Source: Alphaproteobacteria bacterium UBA1218 (lineage in GTDB: Bacteria > Pseudomonadota > Alphaproteobacteria > Rs-D84). Taken from it: 64,000 nucleotides of DNA. The notes under the pieces are model-generated. The model worked only from the letters and a program-made list of their open reading frames with translations, did not search any database and had not been told where the DNA came from. Below are positions 2,890-63,192 of this stretch, piece after piece (positions within the stretch are counted from its first letter, which is position 1; each line of letters opens with the position of its first letter). A program made the translations under genes and the position numbers. The DNA lies in NCBI GenBank assembly GCA_002309215.1, contig DBXG01000023.1, positions 10,086 to 74,085 on the forward strand, in the 5' to 3' direction.

Positions 2890-4632
2890 CTAGATACGCT
2901 CAAACATAGTATCCAGTTCTGCCATTGATATTACTTTATAAACAGGCCGACCATGATTACATTCTGTTCCGCGTTCTGTTTGTTCTATGTCCCGTAAAAG
3001 CGCATTCATTTGTTCATAATTTAATTTTTGCCCCGCACGAACAGAATGATGACACGCATAATTAGCCAATTTCAAATGTATTTTTTCATTTAATTTGGAC
3101 GAATGTCCGTACGCACGCACTTCATCTGCAATTTCATGCATGCATTGTTCCCAATTCAAATCCCAATCAGACGGTTTCTCAAAAACAGCAACAGCACTAT
3201 CCCCAAAAGCATCAACTTGCAAACCACAACCTTTCAATTCATCTGCTATACTCAACACTGCCATAACATCTTCTTCACGCAAACGAATAACTATCGGTGT
3301 CAACAACGGTTGCGTCTTGATTTTATGTAAACGCAATTTTTCGTACGTAATTCTTTCATGCGCAGCATGTTGATCAACAACAATTAAACCATCTTTATTT
3401 TCCGCTAAAATATATTTATTATTTATTTGACCAATTACACGTCCCAACGGCAAATCAAATTCAGAGTCAGATTGCATCGTATCGCAACATGTATCACGTT
3501 GTTCATTTTGTTGTATACAGCTGTTTCTGCTGTATACAGGTTCAGATACAAATGTTTTTACATAATCTTTTTGTTCAATATGTGTGTTATTGAAAAATGT
3601 CTGCACCGGTGGTAATTCAAATGCTATACTGGGTTGTTTATTTGAAACAGATGAATGTTGCTGCAATGTTTTTGATAACGCTTCACGCAAAGTTTTAATT
3701 ATAAATGCACGCACATGTGTTGGTTCTAAAAAATGCACTTCTGTTTTGGCAGGCGACACATTTACATCGACATGATTTGATGGCAAATCCAGATACAATG
3801 CACATAATGGAAATTCGCGCGCATGCATAACATCCATATAGGCTGCCCGTAACGCAGATACCAGTACTTTGTCTTTAACAGGTCTACCATTTACAAATAA
3901 GTATTGATCCACAGATGAAGCACGACGTAATGTCGGATGCGAAATAAAACCGTATAAATGCATATCGGCCGAGGAAGACTGTGCATCAACGTTTAACATT
4001 TTGTCCCGAACATCTTCCCCCATAATTGCAATTATACGTTCAATCAAATCTTGTTTCTTTGGGAAAAACCATTTGTTATTCAAAACAAAGCCCACATCTC
4101 TGCGTCCCATAGCCAACCGTTTAACGATTTCTAGCACACCCAACATTTCTGCTTTGTCTGTATGCAAAAACTTCAACCTTGCAGGTGTTTTTGCAAACAA
4201 GTTCGACACACGAATTCTGGTACCACTTTCCCAATCAGATGGTTTGATTTCTGCTGTATTGGCATCCATACACCAACCATTTTTATCTTTACCATTACAT
4301 GTATCTATAAGCATATCTGATACTGATGCAATTGATGGCAAAGCCTCACCACGAAAACCCATAAAATTGATATTTAATAAATCATCACTTGGCAATTTAG
4401 AAGTAGCATGTCGCATAATACAATTTGCTAAATCTTCCTTGGACATACCGGAACCATTATCGATAACAGAAATCAAAGTCCGTCCACCATCAACAACATC
4501 AATAATAATTTGGTCCGCCCCTGCATCCAATGCATTTTCGACCAATTCTTTGACAACACTGGCTGGTCTTTCAACCACCTCACCTGCTGCGATTTGATTT
4601 ATCAGAAAATCCGGCAGAACGCGTATTGACAT
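2890..4632 (-). CDS. mutL: DNA mismatch repair protein MutL
   Basis: 580 aa. N-terminal GHKL ATPase motifs (AAGEVVERPASVVKELVENALDAGA) and a C-terminal dimerisation region. Confidence 0.9.
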   Translation of the reverse strand: MSIRVLPDFLINQIAAGEVVERPASVVKELVENALDAGADQIIIDVVDGGRTLISVIDNGSGMSKEDLANCIMRHATSKLPSDDLLNINFMGFRGEALPSIASVSDMLIDTCNGKDKNGWCMDANTAEIKPSDWESGTRIRVSNLFAKTPARLKFLHTDKAEMLGVLEIVKRLAMGRRDVGFVLNNKWFFPKKQDLIERIIAIMGEDVRDKMLNVDAQSSSADMHLYGFISHPTLRRASSVDQYLFVNGRPVKDKVLVSALRAAYMDVMHAREFPLCALYLDLPSNHVDVNVSPAKTEVHFLEPTHVRAFIIKTLREALSKTLQQHSSVSNKQPSIAFELPPVQTFFNNTHIEQKDYVKTFVSEPVYSRNSCIQQNEQRDTCCDTMQSDSEFDLPLGRVIGQINNKYILAENKDGLIVVDQHAAHERITYEKLRLHKIKTQPLLTPIVIRLREEDVMAVLSIADELKGCGLQVDAFGDSAVAVFEKPSDWDLNWEQCMHEIADEVRAYGHSSKLNEKIHLKLANYACHHSVRAGQKLNYEQMNALLRDIEQTERGTECNHGRPVYKVISMAELDTMFERI

Positions 4633-4633
4633 A

Positions 4634-5104
4634 TCAGTCCTTGAACTTTATATCGATAATTTCAAATTCTTTTTCACCACTTGGTAATTTAACCATACAT
4701 GTATCGCCAACACAATGTCCAATCAAAGCACGCCCAACAGGTGATGTACACGATATAACTTTGCGACCATCAGATTCAATATCAGATAAAATGCGACACT
4801 CCATTTTATTTCCGTCTTCATCTTCGGTTAAAACTTTGGCACCAAAAATTACACGATCACCAGACAAGGTGTCCAAATCAATGACTTGGGCATTTTCAAT
4901 AACAGATTCCAAAAACTGAATCCTTTTATCGATATTACGCTGTTTTTCACGCGCAGCACTGTAATCGGCATTTTCGGACAAGTCCCCCAAAGAGCGCGCC
5001 CATTCAATAACCTTCAGTATTTCTGGTCGCTGGTTTTCCCGTAAATCTTTCAATTCTTTAATTAAATTGTCAAAACCTTGACGTGATATTGGTCTTTTTT
5101 CCAT
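4634..5104 (-). CDS. greA: transcription elongation factor GreA
   Basis: 156 aa with an N-terminal coiled-coil and a C-terminal FKBP-like domain. The start sits 1 nt after the mutL stop. Confidence 0.85.
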   Translation of the reverse strand: MEKRPISRQGFDNLIKELKDLRENQRPEILKVIEWARSLGDLSENADYSAAREKQRNIDKRIQFLESVIENAQVIDLDTLSGDRVIFGAKVLTEDEDGNKMECRILSDIESDGRKVISCTSPVGRALIGHCVGDTCMVKLPSGEKEFEIIDIKFKD

Positions 5105-5188
5105 ATTAAAATCCTTAAAGTTTATGATAACAATATACCATAAATTTTAATTTTGCAATTATCATTTCAAACTATTATACTGTACATT

Positions 5189-6253
5189 ATGTATATATTC
5201 AGACCGAAAGTTTTGACCAGATTCCTGATGCACCGCTTTTTCAGCAGTTTTTTTATCGTGATGCTGATTGTGTGCGGAATTATTTTTGCTGTCACGTTTG
5301 TGGAAAGATTATCTGCTAATCCCGATGCTATCTCTACCCTGTTTGATGCTTGGACCAGATTATTGGAATACATACCAATGTTTTTACCGCTGGCTGTATT
5401 TATGGGAACTTTACTTGTATCATATACATTAACAAAATCTTCTGAAATGATTATTATCTCTGGTGCAGGTTTGTCACCATATCAAATTGTGAAACCTTTT
5501 TTAATTAGCGCGGTACTAATTGGAATTGTCGCATCAACAATTGTAAACCCTTATTCTGTAAATCTGACCACACGAAATCTGACGAATCATCAGTTGAAAT
5601 TGATAGATGATGCAATCTGGTTACGCGAATCCTCAGACGACGGCTTTTTAACTTTACGCGCAACAAATATAAATATTCAGGACAACAACATTGTTTTTCA
5701 TGATGTGAGCATATTTAAACAGGATAAAACATTTAAATTAAAAGAAAGAATATCTGCCGACAAGGTGATATTATCACAATCTGGTCTGGATATAAATCCT
5801 GCAACTGTACTGAATTCGGATGGTGTCACAACAAAAACCAAAAGACATATCGATACAAAACTAACACCCCAAACAGTTTTGGACAGATATTTACAACCTG
5901 ATCAAATTTCTTTTTGGAAATTGCCCAGTTTTATACGAAAGATGGGGGCAATCGGCGTTACAACACGTGGTCATCTGGTTCAATTCTGGACATTACTGTT
6001 TTTGCCACTAACTATGATTGCAATGGTTATGTTGGGTATGGCTTTTGCACAGACTAAACAACGCAGAAATTACAGTTTTGGCCTTAAATTCAGTCTGGGT
6101 ATATTAACATGCTTTGCTTTGTATTTTATTGTAAATTTATTTAATGCTTTGGGAACCACCGGAACATTGCCACCGTTACTGGCAATTGTTGCACCACAAA
6201 TTATAATCATCGCAGGCGCTTGTATGTTTATAACCAGTTTTGATACAATCTAA
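5189..6253 (+). CDS. LptF/LptG-family lipopolysaccharide export permease (YjgP/YjgQ)
   Basis: About 355 aa, 6 TM helices and a central periplasmic beta-jellyroll region. The likely ATG is at 5189 (MYIFRPKVLTRFL...); the track ORF begins at a TTG at 5153. Confidence 0.55.
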   Translation: MYIFRPKVLTRFLMHRFFSSFFIVMLIVCGIIFAVTFVERLSANPDAISTLFDAWTRLLEYIPMFLPLAVFMGTLLVSYTLTKSSEMIIISGAGLSPYQIVKPFLISAVLIGIVASTIVNPYSVNLTTRNLTNHQLKLIDDAIWLRESSDDGFLTLRATNINIQDNNIVFHDVSIFKQDKTFKLKERISADKVILSQSGLDINPATVLNSDGVTTKTKRHIDTKLTPQTVLDRYLQPDQISFWKLPSFIRKMGAIGVTTRGHLVQFWTLLFLPLTMIAMVMLGMAFAQTKQRRNYSFGLKFSLGILTCFALYFIVNLFNALGTTGTLPPLLAIVAPQIIIIAGACMFITSFDTI

Positions 6254-8755: not shown

Positions 8756-10036
8756 ATGTTAGATATAAAATTTATTCGCGAAAATCCAGATGTTGTAAAA
8801 AACGCATGTCAGGTTAAAAGTTTTCCAGATGTGGTCGATGATATTTTGACTCTGGACAAACGCGTTCGTGAATTGAAAACAATTACACAAACAAAAACCG
8901 CTGAAAAAAACAAGATTTCTAAAGAAATCCCAACAGCAACGGATAAAGCATCTTTGATTGCAAAATCCAAAGCGATAAGCGAAGAAATCGCAAACGAAAT
9001 GGCTGAATTAGCAAGCAAAGAAAACATATTAAACGATTTACTTCATCGTGTTCCACAAATACCATCATCTGACGCACCAATTGGCCCCGATGAATCTGCA
9101 AACGTTGAAATCCGCCGTATAGGGACGCCACGCACATTTGATTTTACACCACGTCCACAATGGGATTTGTTGGATATGAACGGTTGGTGGATGCCAGAAA
9201 AAATCGGAAATATTTGTGGCACACGCACATATTGCCTGGTCGGCGAATTGGCAGAATTAGAAATGGCAGTACAAACCTATGTTATTCAGAAACTAATTTC
9301 TAAAGGTTTCACTTATATTGAATGTCCATCTGTCACAAAACCACAAACAATATTTAATGCAGGACATTTTATGGGTTCTGATTTATCAGTTATGAACGAC
9401 GATGTCTTTATGCTTGAAGGCACAGACCGCTGTTTAGCCGGTACATCTGAAATAATTATGAATGCTTTATACAGTGATGAAATATTAAACGAAAATGAAT
9501 TACCTATGAAATTTGTTGGTTTTTCACCATGTTTCCGCAAAGAAGCCGGCGCTGCCGGTCGTGACACGCGCGGTCTTTATCGTTTTCATCAATTTAATAA
9601 AGTCGAACAATATGTATTCTGCAAACCAGAAGACAGCGACAAAATGCATGAATTTTTGTTAAACAACCTGTGCGAAATTATGGAAGATTTGGAATTACCA
9701 TATCGTGTAATTGCAAATTCTACCGGCGACATGGGATTCAACAAAGTCAAAATGAATGATGTCGAAGCATGGTTTCCATCTGAAAATACTTATCGCGAAT
9801 TGGGTTCTTGTTCAACCATAGGTCAATTTCAGGCACGCAGAACAAATACCAGATATCGTAAAAACGCATCTGGTGAAGTTGATTTTGTTGCAACATTAAA
9901 CAATACTGGGATTGCAGTGCCACGTGCTTTGGTGCCAATAATGGAAAATCATCAAAATGCAGATGGCTCGGTCAACATACCGAAAAAACTGCAACCATTG
10001 ATGGGTGGCAGAACAAAAATTGGCGGTAAACACTAA
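8756..10036 (+). CDS. serS: seryl-tRNA synthetase
   Basis: 426 aa. N-terminal coiled-coil arm and class II motifs (FRKEAGAAGRDTRGLYRFHQF, GSCS). Confidence 0.9.
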   Translation: MLDIKFIRENPDVVKNACQVKSFPDVVDDILTLDKRVRELKTITQTKTAEKNKISKEIPTATDKASLIAKSKAISEEIANEMAELASKENILNDLLHRVPQIPSSDAPIGPDESANVEIRRIGTPRTFDFTPRPQWDLLDMNGWWMPEKIGNICGTRTYCLVGELAELEMAVQTYVIQKLISKGFTYIECPSVTKPQTIFNAGHFMGSDLSVMNDDVFMLEGTDRCLAGTSEIIMNALYSDEILNENELPMKFVGFSPCFRKEAGAAGRDTRGLYRFHQFNKVEQYVFCKPEDSDKMHEFLLNNLCEIMEDLELPYRVIANSTGDMGFNKVKMNDVEAWFPSENTYRELGSCSTIGQFQARRTNTRYRKNASGEVDFVATLNNTGIAVPRALVPIMENHQNADGSVNIPKKLQPLMGGRTKIGGKH

Positions 10037-48157: not shown

Positions 48158-48856
48158 ATGGTTGGCATGAAGAAATCCATATTCTTTTGGTTGTATTTTG
48201 TTGCGTCAATCATTTTGGCGACCTATTTTGCATGTCGCATTATAACCAGCCAAATGGGCCGCGGTCCCATATCGCTGGTAAAGCATATTCATATAACCAG
48301 TAATTCCCAAGATTTTAATCCAGACACAATTAAAATGGCGATTGGCATTTCTGGGGAAACAAAAATTCGCTCGATAGATTTGCACCAAACAAATAAACGC
48401 ATATTAAGCGTCCCCGGAATAAAGAAATCTGCCACGCGCCGATTACCTAATGGCGACATAATTATAAAATCTGAAAAATACGATGTTGTTGCTATGTGGT
48501 CTGATGGTGTTTCTTGTTATCCGTTATCTTCTGACGGAACAAAGATAAACACACCATCCGATACTTGCAACGAAAACTCTTTAGTTTTTCGTGGTGAATT
48601 GCCAAATGATTTATCAGAAGTAATCGCCAGCGCATCTGTCCTGTCTGAATACATTGATTATTTAGATATGGTTGAATCAAGACGTTGGAATATACATACA
48701 AAAAACGGCATAACTATATACTTACCAGAAAATAATTTCACAGATGCAATCAACAAAATAAATGTATTAAATCAAGCGAATAAATTATTATCACGAAAAC
48801 TGGATATTATTGATATGCGTGATAACACCAGAATCTTAGTAAAAACAAAAAAATGA
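48158..48856 (+). CDS. ftsQ: cell division protein FtsQ-like
   Basis: N-terminal TM anchor, POTRA-like region, position immediately upstream of ftsA. Confidence 0.55.
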   Translation: MVGMKKSIFFWLYFVASIILATYFACRIITSQMGRGPISLVKHIHITSNSQDFNPDTIKMAIGISGETKIRSIDLHQTNKRILSVPGIKKSATRRLPNGDIIIKSEKYDVVAMWSDGVSCYPLSSDGTKINTPSDTCNENSLVFRGELPNDLSEVIASASVLSEYIDYLDMVESRRWNIHTKNGITIYLPENNFTDAINKINVLNQANKLLSRKLDIIDMRDNTRILVKTKK

Positions 48857-50637
48857 ATCTTATAAATTCGTCTTTTTTATGTCTGGATATTGGAACATAT
48901 GGTGTTCGTGGTTTTGCACATTCTGTACGCAATGCGAAAATAATACAGTCTGCAACTCATTTTGTAAAAAACACAAATACTTTATTTGCTTTGAATTGTG
49001 TCATTGATGAATTGGAGCAACAATTACAAACACATTTTAATTCTGCTTTTGTGACTGGTAATTTTGGTGATGCAGATTTTCAGACTGTTTCTGACACACT
49101 GATTTGGCATGACGAACACAAAATAAACGAACAAGATTTACGCCGTCAAATTGCAAAAATAACACCGCCTGATGATTTTTACACAATGCATATTGTGCCT
49201 GTCTTCTATGGAACAAAGTCAATAAAAAACATCAGCAACACACCTGTTGGACACATCGATACAGAATTAAAATCTATTTTCAGTATAATTTCATACGAAC
49301 AAAATAAAACTAAATATATTTCCGATATGATGCGCCGGTCGCATATTAAACCCGCTGGATTTTTCGATCCAACTTTTCTACACAATGCTATCTACAGAAA
49401 AACAAAAGAAAAAGTTTTACTCTTAGATTTGGGTCACGAATATACAACTGTATCAATCTGGACAGATCGTGGACCATTGTATTTCAATAAAATAAAATTT
49501 GGTCAAAACGATATAACAAACGCGCTTGCAACAGGATTAGACATCAGCACACCAGATGCAGACATATTAAAAATAGCAACTTCAAACGCTTTACCAAATG
49601 AAATGGACAGATTTACACCTGCTGATTCATCTGAAAAATTTGCACAATTTTCTCGCGCAGATGTAAATGAAATATTTGTTCCAAAACTAACACAATTAAT
49701 AAATATTGTTTATGAACAATCAAAAAAATATATCGAACAATATGCGCCTGAAAAAATCATATTAACTGGTGGTGGGACCGCAATCGAAAATATCGACATA
49801 TTTTTACAGCAAATGTTCAATTTGCCTGTTGATAACCAAACAGAAAGCGCAACAGTAAACGCATTATCTGAATATGTATGGGAATTAAATCTACCAAAAC
49901 GCAACGCATACATACAAAAACAAATGAAACTGCAAAATACGCTCAAAAAAATTACGCGTTTATTCCATAAAAAGAAAATCATCAAAAAGAAAAAGTTTAT
50001 TCCAATTATGCCCAGCACTTTATGTTTCAATATGAACGACATGTCAACGTATACGCTATTTGCGTCTGGCGGAATCTCTATGATACACGTTGATATAATG
50101 GACGGTTTATATGTCGAAAAAATCGCAGGCGGAATAAATGAATTGGCAAAAATAAGAACAAATACGAACGCCCATTTACATGTTCACCTGATGACAGAAA
50201 GCCCATCAATATGGGCACGCGATGCTATAAACGCTGGGGCAGATACAATTATAATATCAACAAACACATCTGGTGTTCGTGATGCCATAAATGTCATAAA
50301 AAATGCTGGCAAGCGTTGCGGAATTGCTGTGAATCCTGAAACATCAATTGATATAATTGTCCCAGTATTGAAAAATATTGATGAAGTTATGGTAATGGGC
50401 GTAAAACCTGGCGCAGCAGGTCAAACATTTGATGAAAATATTTTACAAAAAATACGAATACTGAACTACACACGCAAAAAACATGGATTAAAATATTTAA
50501 TTAGTGTTGATGGTGGCATAAATCCTGAAACCGCCAAATTATGCTGGAATGCTGGCGCAGACTTATTGGTCAGCGGTTCTTATCTTGCACGTGCTCATGA
50601 TTTTCCTTTGGCTGTGCAAAGTTTATTGAAGCACTAG
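48853..50637 (+). CDS. ftsA: FtsA (residues about 1-385) fused in-frame to ribulose-phosphate 3-epimerase (about 390-594)
   Basis: The N-terminal part aligns by eye to E. coli FtsA (LDIGT, PVG, LDLG..TT, ILTGGG). The C-terminal part is an unmistakable Rpe (IMPSTL..., HVDIMDG, MGVKPG, VDGGI). No in-frame stop between them. Confidence 0.6.
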   Translation: MNLINSSFLCLDIGTYGVRGFAHSVRNAKIIQSATHFVKNTNTLFALNCVIDELEQQLQTHFNSAFVTGNFGDADFQTVSDTLIWHDEHKINEQDLRRQIAKITPPDDFYTMHIVPVFYGTKSIKNISNTPVGHIDTELKSIFSIISYEQNKTKYISDMMRRSHIKPAGFFDPTFLHNAIYRKTKEKVLLLDLGHEYTTVSIWTDRGPLYFNKIKFGQNDITNALATGLDISTPDADILKIATSNALPNEMDRFTPADSSEKFAQFSRADVNEIFVPKLTQLINIVYEQSKKYIEQYAPEKIILTGGGTAIENIDIFLQQMFNLPVDNQTESATVNALSEYVWELNLPKRNAYIQKQMKLQNTLKKITRLFHKKKIIKKKKFIPIMPSTLCFNMNDMSTYTLFASGGISMIHVDIMDGLYVEKIAGGINELAKIRTNTNAHLHVHLMTESPSIWARDAINAGADTIIISTNTSGVRDAINVIKNAGKRCGIAVNPETSIDIIVPVLKNIDEVMVMGVKPGAAGQTFDENILQKIRILNYTRKKHGLKYLISVDGGINPETAKLCWNAGADLLVSGSYLARAHDFPLAVQSLLKH

Positions 50638-55602: not shown

Positions 55603-57372
55603 TCAGTTTTTCTTTCTGATTTGTATATGAATATCACGCAATTGTTGTTCACTAACCTCATTCGGTGAACCCATTAACAAATCCTGACCGCGCTGATTGG
55701 CAGGGAAAGCAACGATTTCACGAACACTTTCGCCATCACCAAGGATTTCAGAAACCAATCTATCAATTCCAAACGCACATCCACCATGTGGTGGTGCACC
55801 ATATTTGAAAGCAGTATAAAGCGCACTGAAGTTCTTTTCAACTGCTTCAATTGGATAACCAGCAATATCGAAACACTTTTTCATGACTTCTGGATTATAA
55901 TTGCGTAATCCACCACTGCAAATTTCAAGACCATTTAACACCATATCAAATTGTGCCGCCTTGATAGAAAATGGGTCTTTCGTTGATAATTCTTCAAGTG
56001 TTGCCAGCGGATAAGAAAACGGATTATGCGTAAACATTGGCGCACCACCGCGTTCTTCATCTGGCTCAAAGAATGGGAAATTATCAACCCAACAAAATGC
56101 AAAATCGCGTTCATTAACCAAACCAAGGTCTGCACCAAGTTTGTTACGTAAACGACCAGCAGCCTTATTTGCATTATCAACATTATCACAAACAAAGAAC
56201 AATGATGAATTATCGCCTGCAATTTCATGCAACTTTGCAATTCTGTCTGCATCAAGTTTTTTTGCCACAGGTCCCTTTGCTTCATCAGCAAAAACAATAT
56301 AACCTAATCCACCAAGTCCCAATTCCTTAACAGCGTATTCGCCCAATTTATCAAACCAAGAACGTGGTTTATCAGCGCTGTTTGGTGCAGGTATCGCACG
56401 CACAACAGCACCGTTTTCAATTGCATTTGCAAAGATTCCAAAATCAGAACCGCGGAATATATCTGTGACATCAGATATCAAAATTGGATTACGCAAATCT
56501 GGTTTATCGCAACCGTATTTCAACATCGCATCATCAAAAGATATATGTGGAATTTCTGGATAAATATTTGCATCTGGTGCAAAAGTCCGAACCAATTCTG
56601 GAATAACCGCTTCGCCAACCGCCTGAATATCAGCCTGATCAACAAAAGACATTTCAATATCCAATTGGTAAAACTCCAGCAATCTGTCAGCACGCAAATC
56701 TTCATCACGAAAACATGGCGCAATCTGGAAATATCTATCGAACCCTGCAACCTGTAATAACTGCTTGAACATTTGTGGCGCCTGGGGCAAAGCATAAAAT
56801 TTGCCATGATGCAAACGTGAAGGAACCAAGAAACATCTGGCGCCTTCTGGGCTATCCGCAGTCAATAGTGGGGTCTGGAATTCAGAAAAACCCATATCCC
56901 ACATTTTATCACGCAACCATTTTATCATTTTGTTACGCATCAAAATACTGTGATGTAATTTTTCACGACGCAAATCCAAAAATCTGTATTGATAGCGTAA
57001 TTCTTCACTGGTGTCTTCATCACCAAAAACCTGGAAAGGCAAAACTTCAGAATTAGTTAAAACCTCCCATTTTTCTGATTTAATTTCAATATGGCCTGTT
57101 GGTATTTTATCGTTTATCGCTTCTTTATCTCTGGCAACAACGGTTCCTGTAATTTTAATAACAGATTCAGAACGAATCTTTTCCAGATTTTCATCGCCCC
57201 CATCAAAAACACATTGTGTAATACCATAATTATCACGCAAATCAACGAATAACAAAGAACCATGATCACGCTTACGATGCACCCAGCCAGATAAAGTGAC
57301 AGTTTCACCAACGTTTTTTTCAGTCAGTTCGCCACAAGTATGCGTTCTGTATTTTGATTTCAAAGACATCAT
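55603..57372 (-). CDS. aspS: aspartyl-tRNA synthetase, bacterial type
   Basis: About 590 aa. LAQSPQMFKQLL motif, GAD insertion domain, motif 3 GGCAFGIDRL. ATG at 57372 with AAGGG 8 nt upstream. Confidence 0.9.
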   Translation of the reverse strand: MMSLKSKYRTHTCGELTEKNVGETVTLSGWVHRKRDHGSLLFVDLRDNYGITQCVFDGGDENLEKIRSESVIKITGTVVARDKEAINDKIPTGHIEIKSEKWEVLTNSEVLPFQVFGDEDTSEELRYQYRFLDLRREKLHHSILMRNKMIKWLRDKMWDMGFSEFQTPLLTADSPEGARCFLVPSRLHHGKFYALPQAPQMFKQLLQVAGFDRYFQIAPCFRDEDLRADRLLEFYQLDIEMSFVDQADIQAVGEAVIPELVRTFAPDANIYPEIPHISFDDAMLKYGCDKPDLRNPILISDVTDIFRGSDFGIFANAIENGAVVRAIPAPNSADKPRSWFDKLGEYAVKELGLGGLGYIVFADEAKGPVAKKLDADRIAKLHEIAGDNSSLFFVCDNVDNANKAAGRLRNKLGADLGLVNERDFAFCWVDNFPFFEPDEERGGAPMFTHNPFSYPLATLEELSTKDPFSIKAAQFDMVLNGLEICSGGLRNYNPEVMKKCFDIAGYPIEAVEKNFSALYTAFKYGAPPHGGCAFGIDRLVSEILGDGESVREIVAFPANQRGQDLLMGSPNEVSEQQLRDIHIQIRKKN

Positions 57373-57646
57373 TTTCAACACCCTTTTTTGTCCCCCATAG
57401 CTTCAGCGAAAGGGGATTGTTTTCGGTGCCATAAAAATTTGCTATACGGCACCAATTCCAATCTTAAATCTCACAGGGGCGCTAGATTTTTTCGCGCGGT
57501 GCCACCCTGCCTTATTACTTTTTGTTTTTCATATAACACTACCCGGTTGTCAGTCGTATCAACGCATTACATAAAAACCAACGATATGGACAGATTCTAT
57601 ACCGAAAATATCACAAATGCAAGAAATAAACCATTAATCAAATATT
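57373..57646 (-). promoter_or_regulatory. T-box-riboswitch-like leader of aspS
   Basis: On the transcript strand: AGGG-UGGCACC-GCGCG-AAAAAAUCUA-GCGC-CCCU (plus coordinates about 57475-57508). This matches the T-box consensus AGGGUGGNACCGCG and the antiterminator helix A1 / 7-nt bulge / helix A2 layout. UGGC would pair with a GCCA 3' end (G73, as in tRNA-Asp). GAC codons lie in the 5' part (CGACUGACAA). Confidence 0.55.
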
Positions 57647-58204
57647 TTAATCAATATAATATACTCTGTTTGCTTTGCGTGGAATATTTGGAACATCGCC
57701 ATTCGGATAACCCAAAATACAATAACCAATGCCTTCCCAATTACCAGTAATACCCAAGGATTTTAAAATTTCTTGATATTCTGGTTTTTGAAAAGTTTCT
57801 TTGGCACGACATATCCAACAACTACCAACACCCAAAGCATGTGCAGCCAACATTAAATTACCCATAACCAAAGAACCGTCATATACGTAATCAACAAAAC
57901 CTTTATCTGCTACAACAACCAATACTACTGGCGCACCATAAAAAGGGTCTGCACCATCATATAAACCATCAAACTTAGCTTTTTCTGCTGATAATCTATC
58001 ACGTAAATCTTTATTTGTTACGACTATAATTTTTACTTCTTGTTGATTCATACCACTAGCCGCACACAACCCAACATCAACAATTTGATTGATTTTCTCT
58101 TGTTCAACCATATCTGGCTTATACTTGCGTATACTACGCCTAGTCTTAATAGATTCTAAAACAGCATTCATCAAAAAAACCTTTGTGCAAACCTTTTGTC
58201 CCAC
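57647..58204 (-). CDS. nitroreductase-family protein
   Basis: 185 aa. TRRSIRKY and the rest of the NAD(P)H-flavin nitroreductase fold. Confidence 0.75.
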   Translation of the reverse strand: MGQKVCTKVFLMNAVLESIKTRRSIRKYKPDMVEQEKINQIVDVGLCAASGMNQQEVKIIVVTNKDLRDRLSAEKAKFDGLYDGADPFYGAPVVLVVVADKGFVDYVYDGSLVMGNLMLAAHALGVGSCWICRAKETFQKPEYQEILKSLGITGNWEGIGYCILGYPNGDVPNIPRKANRVYYID

Positions 58205-60570: not shown

Positions 60571-61572
60571 ATGACAATGAAAGTTTTACGCAAAGGTGCA
60601 CATTCAACCGTATTTATAGACGAAAATGAACCAGGAATTGTTATAAAAAAAGCGAACAATCCAGAAAATAGCAGTTATTTAAGTAAGCAACAATATGGAT
60701 ACGATGTAATAAATTCCATAAAAGCCCAAGGTAATGACATTGGTGTTATATTACCAGAACTTGTTGCAATAGATAACGAAGAAAAAACAGTTAAAGAAAA
60801 GATAATATCAGGGGAAACTTTTGATTCTGGCCAAGCAATAAACGAAAAATATTCTAGATTGTCTGCAAAACAAAAAGATTCTATTGCACAACAAATGGCA
60901 AGATTTTTGAACGCCATGCATTCCAGTTCAGAATGCAAACCGGCACAAGAATCCATAATCAATATGCAAAAAAGCGGCCCAGCAAATGCCGATGAAATTA
61001 TCGCTAAATTCGGTGGGTATTTGCCTAAAAACATAACAAACAGATTGAAACAGGCCGAAGCATATTTACACGCATCAGACAAATCTGACGAATTTATTGT
61101 TATGACCCACAAAGACCTAAGAACATCAAATGTAATGTATGATGCAAACATGAATAAACTAGCAGTTATTGATTTTGAGCTAGCAGGATTAGACAATGTA
61201 TATAATGATTTTATCGCTTCCGCACCAGGCAGTTCTATGCCTTGGGATTTTACCAAACGCGTAATTGATTTTTATAACCAAATACCAGACAAGAAATACC
61301 CAATAACGATAAACCCAGAAAAAGTACAAAATATGTTACTTTATGGGGTTATGCACGAATATGCACGCAACATAAGACCTAATGACAATACCCAAGAATA
61401 CCTTGTTCCCCTGGTGACACGTTTAACAAACAAGTTGATGGATATAACTGGAATAGATATTGATAAAAAAGCATCATACAGACAAGCAATCAGAACAACA
61501 CAAGACAAACAACGCCAAAAAAAACTTGAAAACACAAAAAATTATCCTATAATACGAGATGAAAGCCGATAA
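60571..61572 (+). CDS. APH/protein-kinase-like phosphotransferase
   Basis: 333 aa. Kinase N-lobe (VLRKGAHSTVF...IKK), catalytic HKDLRTSNVMYD and metal-binding IDFELAG. Confidence 0.6.
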   Translation: MTMKVLRKGAHSTVFIDENEPGIVIKKANNPENSSYLSKQQYGYDVINSIKAQGNDIGVILPELVAIDNEEKTVKEKIISGETFDSGQAINEKYSRLSAKQKDSIAQQMARFLNAMHSSSECKPAQESIINMQKSGPANADEIIAKFGGYLPKNITNRLKQAEAYLHASDKSDEFIVMTHKDLRTSNVMYDANMNKLAVIDFELAGLDNVYNDFIASAPGSSMPWDFTKRVIDFYNQIPDKKYPITINPEKVQNMLLYGVMHEYARNIRPNDNTQEYLVPLVTRLTNKLMDITGIDIDKKASYRQAIRTTQDKQRQKKLENTKNYPIIRDESR

Positions 61573-61834
61573 TCCACTAACAATGGGGAGGCGGAAGAAG
61601 AACGGTTGCAAAGTGATTTGCACTTACTAGAACTTCCCGGGATTGCCCGTCACAGCAAGAGACTCTTTAATGGTATGGCGAATCCAGCGAGAGTTAAAAA
61701 GGCAACATTGGCGACAGTGTTGCGAAACAAGGTGGCACCACGTTGTGTCATGTATTCTGACAAAAAGATATGCATGATATTTTACGTCCTTGTGTTCTTA
61801 TTAAGATAAATAACGAAACACAAAGGAGGTTAAA
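61573..61834 (+). promoter_or_regulatory. T-box-like leader with SD-sequestering alternative helix upstream of aspS2
   Basis: AAGG-UGGCACC-ACG...CGU-CCUU (61729-61791) has the same A1/bulge/A2 layout as the aspS leader. CCUUGUGUU (61788-61796) is complementary to AACACAAAGG (61817-61826), which overlaps the SD AAAGGAGG. GAC lies in the upstream stem region (GAGACUC, 61659-61665). Confidence 0.45.
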
Positions 61835-63151
61835 ATGTCAATGATAAGAACGCATATCGCCGAAATTCTACAAAAGATTGGCGAAACAATAACAATCAAG
61901 GGTCACGCACAAACAATTCGCGAACAATCAAGTATTGCGTTTATTGTCCTGCGTGAAATAACCGGAACCGTTCAATGTGTCGTTGAAAAGGGTTCTGCTG
62001 CTTTTGATTTGGTAAAAGAAATCACAACAGAATCTGTTATATCTGTGACAGGTAAAGTTGTAGAAACGAAAAGCACAGAATCTGGATTTGAAATTCAGAC
62101 ATCTGAAATAAAAATTATATCCTTGGCAGAGGCAACACCGATACCTGTCACACAAAAAGGCAGCGTAGAAGTGACTCCTGAAAAATCGCAAGATTGGCGT
62201 TTTTTGTCGCTCCGTAGCCAACGTGGCGCAACGATAATGCGTGCATTATCTGCGATGACTGTTGGATATCATGAATACCTGATTAAACAAGGTTTCATTG
62301 AAATTCAAACACCCAAGATTATGGCAACACCATCAGAATCCAAGGCAGAATTATTCAAAATGGAATACTTTGGTCAAACTGCATACTTGGCACAATCACC
62401 ACAATTATTCAAACAAATGGCGATTGCGTCTGGGCTTGAACGCGTGTTTGAGGTTGCCCCTGCTTTTCGTGCAGATAAATCTTTTACTACGCGTCACGCA
62501 ACTGAATTCACATCTTTCGATGCAGAAATGGGATACATTGAAAGTTTTGATGAAGTTATGCACGAACTAGAAAGCGCGATTTCGTATATGCTGACATCCA
62601 TCAAAAAGACATGTGGCAAGGAAATCGAAAAGTATTTTGGTATAACCGAATTCCAGTTGAAAAAGCCGATTCTGCGCATCACAATGGCAGAAGCCAAAGA
62701 AATCTTGCGCGAAATAGGCTGTGCATCTGAAGAGCCAGACATTACAACAGCCGAAGAAAAAGCACTTGGCGATTATGTCAAAGAAAAATATGGTTCTGAT
62801 TTTGTATTCGTGACCGAATGGCCATGGGAATCACGCCCATTCTATCATAAAAAAGCGATAGACAAACACGGACATGAAATATCAGTATCTGCCGACTTAC
62901 TTTACAAAGGCGTCGAAATTGTGACCTGCGCCCAACGCGAAGAATCCTATACAAAACTGTGTGAACAGTTAAAAGGCAAAGGATTACACCAAGAGGGCTT
63001 ACAATGGTATTTGGATTGTTTCCGGTACGGCATGCCACCACATGGTGGTTGGGGCTTTGGTGGTGCAAGATTTATCAAGCAGTTGCTGGAATTGCCAACG
63101 ATCAGAGAATCAACATTCCTGTTCCGCGGACCATCACGCTTGATGCCATAA
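61835..63151 (+). CDS. aspartyl-tRNA synthetase, archaeal/eukaryal type (AspRS2; possibly non-discriminating)
   Basis: 438 aa with no GAD insertion. LAQSPQLFKQM...FRADKSFTTRHATEF closely follows the archaeal AspRS signature (QSPQLYKQ, FRAE..TRHL.EF). Motif 3 is GMPPHGGWGFGGAR. Confidence 0.75.
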   Translation: MSMIRTHIAEILQKIGETITIKGHAQTIREQSSIAFIVLREITGTVQCVVEKGSAAFDLVKEITTESVISVTGKVVETKSTESGFEIQTSEIKIISLAEATPIPVTQKGSVEVTPEKSQDWRFLSLRSQRGATIMRALSAMTVGYHEYLIKQGFIEIQTPKIMATPSESKAELFKMEYFGQTAYLAQSPQLFKQMAIASGLERVFEVAPAFRADKSFTTRHATEFTSFDAEMGYIESFDEVMHELESAISYMLTSIKKTCGKEIEKYFGITEFQLKKPILRITMAEAKEILREIGCASEEPDITTAEEKALGDYVKEKYGSDFVFVTEWPWESRPFYHKKAIDKHGHEISVSADLLYKGVEIVTCAQREESYTKLCEQLKGKGLHQEGLQWYLDCFRYGMPPHGGWGFGGARFIKQLLELPTIRESTFLFRGPSRLMP

Positions 63152-63157
63152 AAACAA

Positions 63158-63192
63158 AAGACGTTCAGGCAAACCCCGAACGTCTTTTTATT
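63158..63192 (+). terminator. rho-independent terminator after aspS2
   Basis: AAGACGTTC-loop-GAACGTCTT followed by TTTT. Confidence 0.7.

Follow-up and report, generated by a model that had tools for sequence, protein, structure and literature searches.

Two aspartyl-tRNA synthetase genes and the leader of aspS2

The stretch of DNA analysed here (the window) is 64,000 nt from Alphaproteobacteria bacterium UBA1218 (assembly GCA_002309215.1, contig DBXG01000023.1, positions 10,086 to 74,085 of the forward strand). As the first-pass annotation of this sequence had stated, it contains two genes for aspartyl-tRNA synthetase (AspRS): aspS (55603–57372, minus strand), which encodes a bacterial-type enzyme with a GAD domain, and aspS2 (61835–63151, plus strand), which encodes a 438-aa archaeal-type enzyme without this domain. 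Motifs, NCBIfam and Pfam agree on this division. The product of aspS is a standard bacterial AspRS (NCBIfam, 725.9 bits) of 589 aa, not 590 aa as given initially. Each gene is preceded by a leader with a T-box core. We focus on the leader of aspS2 (61562–61834, plus strand, ∼273 nt), which appears from sequence and covariation to be a genuine T-box riboswitch, complete and of the short-Stem-I (class II-like) type found in actinobacterial ileS, and which carries an asparagine specifier.

The 438-aa protein, AspRS2, carries the motif QSPQLFKQ and FRADKSFTTRHATEF. Pfam identifies an N-terminal OB anticodon-binding domain followed by a class IIb D/K/N core. In NCBIfam the protein passes the cut-off of NF003483, aspartate--tRNA(Asn) ligase (459.8 bits, cut-off 353), and falls far below the cut-offs of the asparaginyl-tRNA synthetase (AsnRS) models (251 versus 414 and 246 versus 343). 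The closest solved structures by sequence are T. kodakarensis AspRS (3e-88) and the non-discriminating AspRS2 of T. thermophilus (1.5e-80), with the top AsnRS match at only 8e-57. Clustering with AsnRS, a concern raised at the outset, was checked in this way, and AspRS2 sides with AspRS; to judge from these comparisons, it is an archaeal-type AspRS, nearer to AspRS than to AsnRS.

A search of the whole window with Rfam at the gathering threshold detected two tRNAs only and no T-box. When the aspS2 leader alone was compared with the T-box model RF00230, an end-to-end alignment was obtained (model positions 1–219 on window positions 61560–61794; 27.8 bits, E = 2e-4), in which ∼78 distal Stem I model positions are replaced by 7 nt and several insertions are present. 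The match to RF00230 that the first-pass annotation proposed to look for exists over the full length, at a score that is below the gathering threshold of 93 bits and in itself no more than suggestive.

Loci of relatives (designated by L numbers below) were collected from species genomes, metagenomes and by exact-protein look-up. The leader alignment comprised 30 distinct leaders and 310 columns, with AspRS2 proteins 63–95% identical to that of the window. Pairing in an explicit tRNA-bound structure was compared with 500 shuffles and with structures slid by 1–3 columns. In this structure 98.2% of the cells are paired and compensatory change is seen in 29 of the 57 pairs; none of the 500 shuffles reached the observed compensation, and the slid structures gave 5–10 pairs with 37–48% pairing. 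The RNAalifold consensus contains Stem I, Stem II, Stem IIA, an extra hairpin, Stem III and a 3′ hairpin, with compensation in 26 of 60 pairs. The minimum free energy (MFE) of the whole leader is −84.2 kcal/mol (z = −4.3 against shuffles). Since the leader is conserved, with compensatory changes, in >30 independent contigs from metagenomes and metagenome-assembled genomes (MAGs), the possibility of a coding or misassembled leader, also named in the first-pass annotation, is ruled out.

The helix A1, UGGC bulge and helix A2 core that had been noticed upstream of both genes is common to the two leaders: the 12-nt core GGUGGNACCRCG is present at just two places in the 64 kb, one upstream of each AspRS gene. 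All RNA motifs quoted in the first-pass annotation were recovered where it had put them. With one mismatch allowed there are four matches versus 0.65 expected, and the two extra ones are located inside open reading frames (ORFs).

A sigma-70-type promoter, TTGAAA-16-TATAAT (61526–61553, plus strand; 11 of 12 matches), sits within the 3′ end of the upstream gene for an APH-like kinase, and a TTGNNN-∼17-TATAAT-like pair is found equally far before Stem I in L121, L123, L124, L126 and L128. Because this promoter is placed just upstream, we put the 5′ end of the leader at ∼61562, where it overlaps the last 11 nt of the kinase ORF; relative to the initial proposal the start moves upstream, and the length becomes ∼273 nt instead of 260 nt.

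Stem I (61565–61592) has only 28 nt. It is made of a base helix GCC/GGC, a kink-turn (K-turn)-like element GAUAA/GGAG, a 4-bp stem and the 7-nt loop CUAACAA with the specifier AAC at 61579–61581, followed by a purine. All four upper-stem pairs and one pair at the base co-vary (CCA/UGG, GUG/CAC, CCG/CGG), and GCC-GAUAA/GGAG-GGC, K-turn-like by sequence, aligns on the K-turn positions of RF00230 with high posterior. Stem II (61593–61637) combines S-turn-type purine tracts, GAAGAAC ... UAGAAC, with a variable distal hairpin. Compensatory change affects 10 of its 12 pairs, and AAGAA and UAGAA are invariant even in the Dehalococcoidales locus L026. The next element (61638–61658) consists of the Stem IIA hairpin CGGG-AUUG-CCCG and the IIB pseudoknot, in which the loop UUG pairs with CAA at 61656–61658. 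Two of the three pseudoknot pairs co-vary in the clade (UUGC/GCAA, CUGC/GCAG, GCGC/GCGC); more distant leaders have UUAGAC/GUCUAA, AAAGC/GCUUU and GUUC/GAAC, which makes six pair sets overall.

Between the pseudoknot and Stem III lies an extra, lineage-specific hairpin of 31 nt, CUCUU-UAA-UGG-UAUGGCGAAU-CCA-GC-GAGAG (61663–61693). It is near-invariant down to 63% protein identity, is lacking in L130, L132, L134 and L026, and may act as a substitute for the missing tRNA-elbow platform. Stem III (61702–61723), in which seven of nine pairs co-vary, is embedded in the purines AAAAAG ... GAAA (61696–61727), in agreement with the RRRxG-Stem III-AA motif defined in PMC7583486; these flanking purines and the purine tracts of Stem II are conserved and fit the T-box motifs of that work. 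The discriminator, or antisequestrator (61728–61792), is formed by the T-box sequence AAACAAGGUGGCACCACG ... CGUCCUUG. It comprises helix A1 (CAAGG/CCUUG), the 7-nt UGGNACC-type bulge UGGCACC (61733–61739), helix A2 (ACG/CGU) and a co-varying inner hairpin; CAAGG-UGGCACC-ACG occupies 61728–61742 and CGU-CCUUG 61785–61792. Two A2 pairs vary yet stay paired, one by a one-sided change (A-U/G-U) and one by compensation (U-A/C-G). The leader as a whole has the class II features: the 28-nt Stem I, no distal platform, no terminator and a Shine–Dalgarno (SD) sequence inside a predicted alternative helix. The idea that the extra hairpin stands in for the elbow platform comes from its GGCGAA loop and AGCGAGAG strand, which bear a loose, permuted likeness to the distal-loop and AG-bulge motifs of Stem I, GGUGAAA and AGAGAG.

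The Rfam score of 27.8 bits versus the gathering value of 93 speaks against the T-box assignment, and the invariance of helix A1 in the 30 leaders, like that of the sequestrator core, leaves covariation silent on the switch. The score can be calibrated. Upstream T-box cores were counted with a loosened regular expression, as the first version was too strict (L038 was missed), and were found in only 6 of ∼75 non-clade aspS2 genes. Five of these six T-box-bearing leaders also miss the Rfam threshold; since only one passes, a low score is typical for divergent or short-Stem-I T-boxes.

Specifier, cognate tRNA and the putative role of AspRS2

The Stem I loop CUAACAA is invariant in the 30 leaders and is laid out like an anticodon loop: U occupies position 2, the triplet positions 3–5 and a purine position 6. 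In its centre stands AAC, an asparagine codon and the preferred Asn specifier, hence the leader is predicted to sense tRNA-Asn. When aspS2 orthologs and the aspS paralog are compared, A and G alternate at the first specifier base, and AC and the following purine are kept. As only this base of the triplet varies across homologs, the reading frame of the specifier is fixed, and the two resulting codons, GAC and AAC, are exactly those relevant to an AspRS, which can charge the tRNAs that read them. The AAC specifier is present in the aspS2 leaders of the window clade, of L130 (loop ACAACG) and of L136 (loop AUUAACGAC), as well as in the aspS leader of L139. The GAC specifier is found in the aspS2 leaders of L004 (CUGACAA), L106 (AUUGACGAC), L132 and L134 (both CGACA), and in the aspS leaders of the window, L097, L138 and L141.

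The first-pass annotation had put both paralogs under the same tRNA-Asp-sensing logic. This does not hold, as the specifier is AAC (Asn) for aspS2 and GAC (Asp) for aspS. Sensing of tRNA-Asp by the aspS2 T-box, as by the aspS leader, would suit a gene encoding an AspRS, and GAC is present in the orthologous leaders of L004, L106, L132 and L134. We nevertheless consider it very unlikely: AAC, not GAC or GAU, stands at the loop centre in the window and in 29 relatives, no GAC or GAU occurs in any other Stem I loop of the leader, and the same loop with GAC does exist in this genome, on the aspS paralog.

Genes for tRNA-Asn(GUU) are located 0.3–3.5 kb from aspS2 in five clade loci (L082:2374–2449, L097:468–543, L098:32–107, L121:5517–5592 and L126:1534–1609). 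All five have the anticodon GUU, G73-CCA and the pair U1-A72. The bulge sequence UGGC is a perfect Watson–Crick complement of the GCCA 3′ end of this tRNA-Asn. There is no tRNA-Asn gene within the 64-kb window, which ends 849 nt after aspS2. The proximity in the five loci hints that the synthetase gene and the gene of the tRNA it responds to are linked in the genome. The placement of the tRNA gene relative to aspS2 differs by locus (upstream and divergent, or downstream).

An unusual host phylum and a sub-threshold Rfam score would also be compatible with a decaying relic that was co-transferred with aspS2 and regulates nothing. Such decay is extremely improbable in view of the extensive compensatory change, of the specifier loop, T-box and SD partner that stay invariant across genera with proteins only 63% identical, and of the fit between the leader and the lineage's own tRNA-Asn. 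We conclude with good confidence that the aspS2 leader is a functional short-Stem-I switch that monitors tRNA-Asn charging.

In the window genome and in L097, where both genes are present, the aspS specifier is Asp and the aspS2 specifier is Asn. This division of labour is not fixed in the lineage, which counts against a general rule, as the aspS leader of L139 also reads AAC. The specifier assignment is, by these comparisons, evolutionarily labile. The L139 case (9800–10003) concerns an aspS gene whose product is 90% identical to the AspRS of the window; its leader has ACUAACAAC (AAC, Asn) instead of GAC, so that the Asp/Asn flip is found on both paralogs and between close relatives.

The T-box would tie aspS2 expression to uncharged tRNA-Asn. 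Four indirect lines of evidence, the NF003483 assignment, the likeness to the non-discriminating enzyme of Thermus, the U1-A72 pair of the lineage's tRNA-Asn and the Asn/Asp switching of specifiers, lead us to favour, with moderate confidence, an AspRS2 that is non-discriminating or tRNA-Asn-directed. U1-A72 is the tRNA-Asn element for GatCAB recognition of Asp-tRNA-Asn (PMC4206432, PMC9976931), and we infer that AspRS2 would feed GatCAB. Because T-boxes detect only acylation of the 3′ end, the riboswitch could serve as feedback on aspartylation of tRNA-Asn.

Several results run counter to this view of the enzyme. AspRS2 scores 358.3 bits with the 'nondiscriminating' model TIGR00458, narrowly below its cut-off of 368.4. 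No gatCAB, asnS or asnB was found among the 20 larger window ORFs that were screened (serS, typA, mutL, uvrB and others were found). AspRS2 has Q26 and E82 where the non-discriminating AspRS2 of T. thermophilus has H and P and the discriminating T. kodakarensis enzyme has W26 and K85. We take these positions to be the sites governing recognition of anticodon base 36; in work by Feng and colleagues from 2003 and 2005 they were reportedly decisive for discrimination. Across the clade, the residues at positions 26 and 82 do not track the specifier type. An attempt to predict discrimination from anticodon-binding residues was given up, as no informative pattern emerged.

Probable switching at the Shine–Dalgarno sequence

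An alternative pairing is predicted downstream of the T-box. Apart from one bulged A, the sequence CCUUGUGUU (61788–61796) is the complement of AACACAAAGG (61817–61826), which overlaps the SD sequence AAAGGAGG (61822–61829). The complete sequestrator hairpin (61784–61830, with 61784–61802 paired to 61809–61830) includes the 3′ strand of A1/A2, CGUCCUUG, so that CCUUG is common to the hairpin and to A1. In this OFF fold the SD sequence is fully paired, and the hairpin ends 4 nt before the AUG. Both the whole-leader MFE structure and the RNAalifold consensus contain the hairpin. Eight clade leaders were also folded under constraints: enforcing the hairpin gave the MFE in seven and a fold ≤0.6 kcal/mol off in the eighth, while the antisequestrator (ON) fold is 4–10 kcal/mol less stable. 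This is the relation expected if tRNA binding pays for the ON state.

The proposed mechanism is as follows. The free GCCA end of uncharged tRNA-Asn would pair with the UGGC bulge and stabilise the antisequestrator A1/A2; the SD sequence AAAGGAGG would then be left open and AspRS2 translated. With tRNA-Asn carrying any aminoacyl group, the strand starting with CCUUGUGUU would pair with AACACAAAGGAGG and the resulting hairpin would bury the SD sequence. Both tRNA binding and ribosome exclusion are here deduced from the RNA sequence. Provided that AspRS2 aspartylates tRNA-Asn, the switch would exert direct negative feedback on the initial reaction of Asn-tRNA-Asn formation.

The terminator scan detected no terminator-like site between the T-box and the AUG of aspS2, and the longest U run in the main-clade leaders is ≤4. 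The homologous leaders of L026 (Dehalococcoidales) and L038 (Woesebacteria) end in hairpin plus U-run terminators, which indicates that terminator loss is specific to the window clade. Since a terminator is missing and the alternative pairing covers the SD sequence, control of aspS2 is likely to be translational, through SD sequestration. A switch that affects transcription, through a terminator that is cryptic or Rho-dependent, or the stability of the mRNA, and not ribosome access, would agree with the transcriptional mode of most T-boxes, with the terminators of the Dehalococcoidales and Woesebacteria relatives and with a sequestrator helix devoid of covariation. We regard it as unlikely, because no hairpin with a U-tract follows the T-box and the alternative helix covers the whole SD sequence up to 4 nt before the AUG.

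What tempers the assignment of the OFF state to SD sequestration is, first, that the core of the sequestrator does not vary. Its strands CCUUGUGUU and AACACAAAGGAG do not differ between genera, in contrast to the variable loop that they enclose, and the sole core variation is G-C to G-U in five sequences; covariation thus neither supports nor refutes the SD helix. Second, a competing candidate helix, itself weakly supported, has slightly better covariation. It would join the leader strand UGUGUUCUUAUU (61791–61802) to codons 3–7 of the ORF, GAUAAGAACGCA (61843–61854). In 25 sequences this helix is 99% paired, with four one-sided pair-preserving changes and two compensated pairs, in L126 (U-to-G with A-to-C) and in L128 (U-to-C with A-to-G). 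It competes with the SD hairpin and can coexist with the ON fold.

The main OFF element could accordingly be this leader:ORF helix, which encloses the SD sequence and the AUG, or there could be three states. In the window the fold containing it differs from the SD-hairpin fold by no more than 0.2 kcal/mol, in L003 this fold is the MFE, and the 3′ strand of the L130 T-box, CGUCCU, pairs with the Arg-Thr codons AGGACG. Set against this and against the pairing just described, the ORF strand encodes a conserved I-R-T-H motif, so that its conservation is partly protein-driven; an equal count arises in 17 of 500 shuffles; 10 of the 12 helix pairs are compatible with the ON fold, so that the helix need not be switch-dependent; and the helix is absent from L132, L134 and L004. 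We give this alternative a real but minor chance. A combination of the SD hairpin and the leader:ORF helix in an H-type pseudoknot was rejected on geometry, as zero loop nucleotides would have to span a 12-bp stem. For SD sequestration, which remains our preferred explanation, the outcome relative to the first-pass annotation is mixed: the proposed pairing does cover the SD sequence, no terminator is found and the hairpin is favoured energetically, with covariation silent.

The aspS leader, relatives and known systems

The leader of aspS (57373–57585, minus strand) is a stripped-down T-box. Stem I (57569–57534) has the loop ACUGACAAC with the specifier GAC (57551–57549), an Asp codon in the same loop context as in the aspS2 leader. 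Its 6-bp base helix co-varies (UAAUGC/GUGUUA versus GAAUAU/GUAUUC); it is followed by a K-turn-like UUGAUNCG/CGNGGAG and a 3-bp stem (GCG/CGC versus GUG/CAC). An A-rich linker, which keeps the purines AAAGUNA...AAA, leads to the T-box core region (57509–57474), where GGUGGCACCGCG (57506–57495) is the same core as that before aspS2. We found no Stem II, IIA/B pseudoknot or Stem III helix in this leader and no terminator after it, and the promoter scan gave no confident promoter. A permissive search with RF00230 produced a sub-threshold match, whose placement of Stem I at 57650–57600 was wrong, the real Stem I being that at 57569–57534. The stripped-down type is also found upstream of aspS in L097 (6690–6890), L138, L139 and L141, and upstream of aspS2 in L106 and L136.

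According to PMC7583486, Stem II is essential when Stem I is truncated, and Stem III is indispensable. If the stripped-down aspS leader works, it would contradict this indispensability of Stems II and III with a short Stem I. The glyQS T-boxes naturally lack Stem II, which the aspS leader, along with IIA/B, also lacks; glyQS keeps a long Stem I with an elbow platform and Stem III, whereas the aspS leader has neither. The CU-NAC-AA loop context and the UGGCACC bulge common to the aspS and aspS2 leaders suggest that one was copied from the other.

Further pairings were observed in this leader. A co-varying hairpin precedes the aspS SD sequence in the window (57395–57425, minus strand) and in L141 (UCCCC...GGGGA versus UCCCAC...GUGGGA) and is absent from L097, L138 and L139. 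Upstream of this optional hairpin lies a conserved GGUGCC...GGCACC hairpin with complementarity to the T-box bulge. Complementarity also exists between the A2 loop AAAUCUUA and the downstream sequence UAAGAUUU (GUUAAA/AUUUAAC in L138), which suggests a multi-helix relay.

Homologs of AspRS2 grade from 95% to ∼46% identity, and all those with a named source are from Alphaproteobacteria, Rickettsiales or Proteobacteria MAGs. The best matches beyond this clade share ≤45% identity and belong to Saccharibacteria, Anaerolineae, other members of the candidate phyla radiation (CPR), Actinobacteria and a few archaea. A covariance model of the decoding module, run over 87 sources (1.26 Mb), matched the clade and the Dehalococcoidales locus L026, and weakly L004 and the Woesebacteria locus L038. 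This restricted set of matches indicates that the module is not general to bacterial aspS2. The aspS2 genes of L026 (7760–8000) and L038 (970–1150) are preceded by short-Stem-I T-boxes with the loops CUAACA and CUGACAA, respectively; these leaders, both below the Rfam threshold, resemble transcriptional T-boxes that have a class II-type Stem I.

A horizontal origin of aspS2, at which the first-pass annotation had hinted, is plausible from its archaeal-type family and from non-clade relatives of ≤45% identity in Chloroflexi, CPR and Actinobacteria. Base composition adds nothing to it: with G+C content (GC) of 0.416 and third-position G+C content (GC3) of 0.355, compared with ∼0.39 and ∼0.30 in housekeeping genes, aspS2 shows no signal of recent transfer, and the slight rise is not diagnostic. 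The distribution fits an arrival of aspS2 together with its riboswitch from a Chloroflexi- or CPR-like source and a later loss of the terminator.

Other arrangements of AspRS genes were seen among the relatives. In L118 (1–2106, termite gut) the aspS2 stop is followed after 14 nt by the ATG of a bacterial-type aspS whose product is 64% identical to that of the window; both AspRS genes thus form one operon, with no separate aspS leader. In L130 (human gut, Hadza) two archaeal-type AspRS genes lie 1.2 kb apart (1467–2801 and 4001–5311). The product of the first (444 aa) passes both NCBIfam cut-offs for non-discriminating AspRS, and no T-box core was seen in the ∼270 nt upstream of this gene; the AAC T-box is present only on the second gene.

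Three further features of the window were recorded. A terminator-like G+C-rich hairpin lies right after the aspS2 stop (63156–63188); it was scored on the minus strand, and on the plus strand the same palindrome is followed by TTTTTATT. The gap upstream of serS is too short for a leader. A 594-aa ORF (48853–50637) combines, according to Pfam, an FtsA/PilM-like N-terminal part with a ribulose-phosphate 3-epimerase domain, and this fusion was also called in L138, L139 and L141.

Translational T-boxes with a short Stem I have been established for actinobacterial ileS (PMC7583486). The ileS leaders of M. tuberculosis, N. farcinica and M. smegmatis share with the aspS2 leader a truncated Stem I with the specifier in its terminal loop and no elbow-binding platform, the K-turn, the S-turn of Stem II, the IIA/B pseudoknot, Stem III with flanking purines and the UGGN bulge. 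In both, a sequestrator/antisequestrator pair over the SD sequence replaces the terminator, on the aspS2 side by prediction (ileS features from PMC7583486 and PMC7778990). The aspS2 leader differs in its AAC (Asn) specifier in place of Ile, in its gene for an archaeal-type AspRS, in its alphaproteobacterial host, in the extra 31-nt hairpin between IIA/B and Stem III and in the possible leader:ORF helix.

A T-box of C. acetobutylicum, the NT-box, senses tRNA-Asn and controls a transamidation operon (Saad et al. 2012, 2013, as summarised in PMC4052509, PMC4574755 and PMC4206432), and is thus a precedent for a tRNA-Asn-sensing T-box on the indirect Asn pathway. As far as these summaries describe it, the NT-box resembles the aspS2 leader in reading tRNA-Asn, in serving the indirect route to Asn-tRNA-Asn and in belonging to a genome with redundant AspRS genes. 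By the same accounts it is transcriptional, with a long canonical Stem I and two overlapping specifiers (Asn, Glu), and governs an operon in Firmicutes, in contrast to the single gene, single centred specifier, short Stem I and probably translational mode of the aspS2 leader.

A second AspRS has been described as rare and limited to Deinococcus-Thermus, some Actinomycetales and Clostridiaceae (PMC4206432). The non-discriminating AspRS2 enzymes of T. thermophilus and D. radiodurans (PDB 1N9W, 3KFU) are, as here, second, GAD-less archaeal-type enzymes beside a bacterial-type AspRS. The AspRS2 of the window matches 1N9W at 1.5e-80 and differs in the anticodon-loop residues (Q26/E82 versus H/P); a further likeness to the Thermus/Deinococcus system is the U1-A72 pair in the tRNA-Asn of five relatives of the window. 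No T-box is known on the AspRS2 genes of Thermus or Deinococcus.

T-box riboswitches are regarded as a Gram-positive feature and are scarce in Proteobacteria: one survey of 125 proteobacterial genomes detected them in only two delta-proteobacteria, where they precede leuA (PMC2494555). Our full-text literature search for T-box riboswitches and Alphaproteobacteria returned no title or abstract on a T-box in that class. The aspS2 locus brings familiar parts together in a host and a gene context that are new, with minor structural peculiarities. For the host range of these elements, it means that a T-box with a short Stem I, structurally complete and conserved, exists in a diderm lineage of Alphaproteobacteria from gut and rumen. 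Given that the Rfam threshold misses the leader, such elements are probably under-annotated in MAGs.

For the second AspRS itself, the leader provides a prediction: expression of this enzyme would depend on the charging of tRNA-Asn. A broader scenario, which we put forward only as a doubtful speculation, is that the lineage acquired the T-box and the archaeal-type AspRS from a Chloroflexi- or CPR-like donor and built a two-riboswitch circuit, where a single G/A difference in the specifier of an anticodon-like loop would allot each paralog to tRNA-Asp or tRNA-Asn, with AspRS2 dedicated to tRNA-Asn and the aspS leader, like the aspS2 leaders of L106 and L136, a working minimal T-box devoid of distal Stem I, Stem II, pseudoknot and Stem III helix. 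If such a circuit is true, AspRS2 and GatCAB would in effect be an AsnRS in trans. The compact decoding modules could serve in the design of tRNA-responsive switches, and the leaders of the family present a natural series in which one point mutation in the specifier would retarget the feedback on a synthetase between tRNA-Asp and tRNA-Asn.

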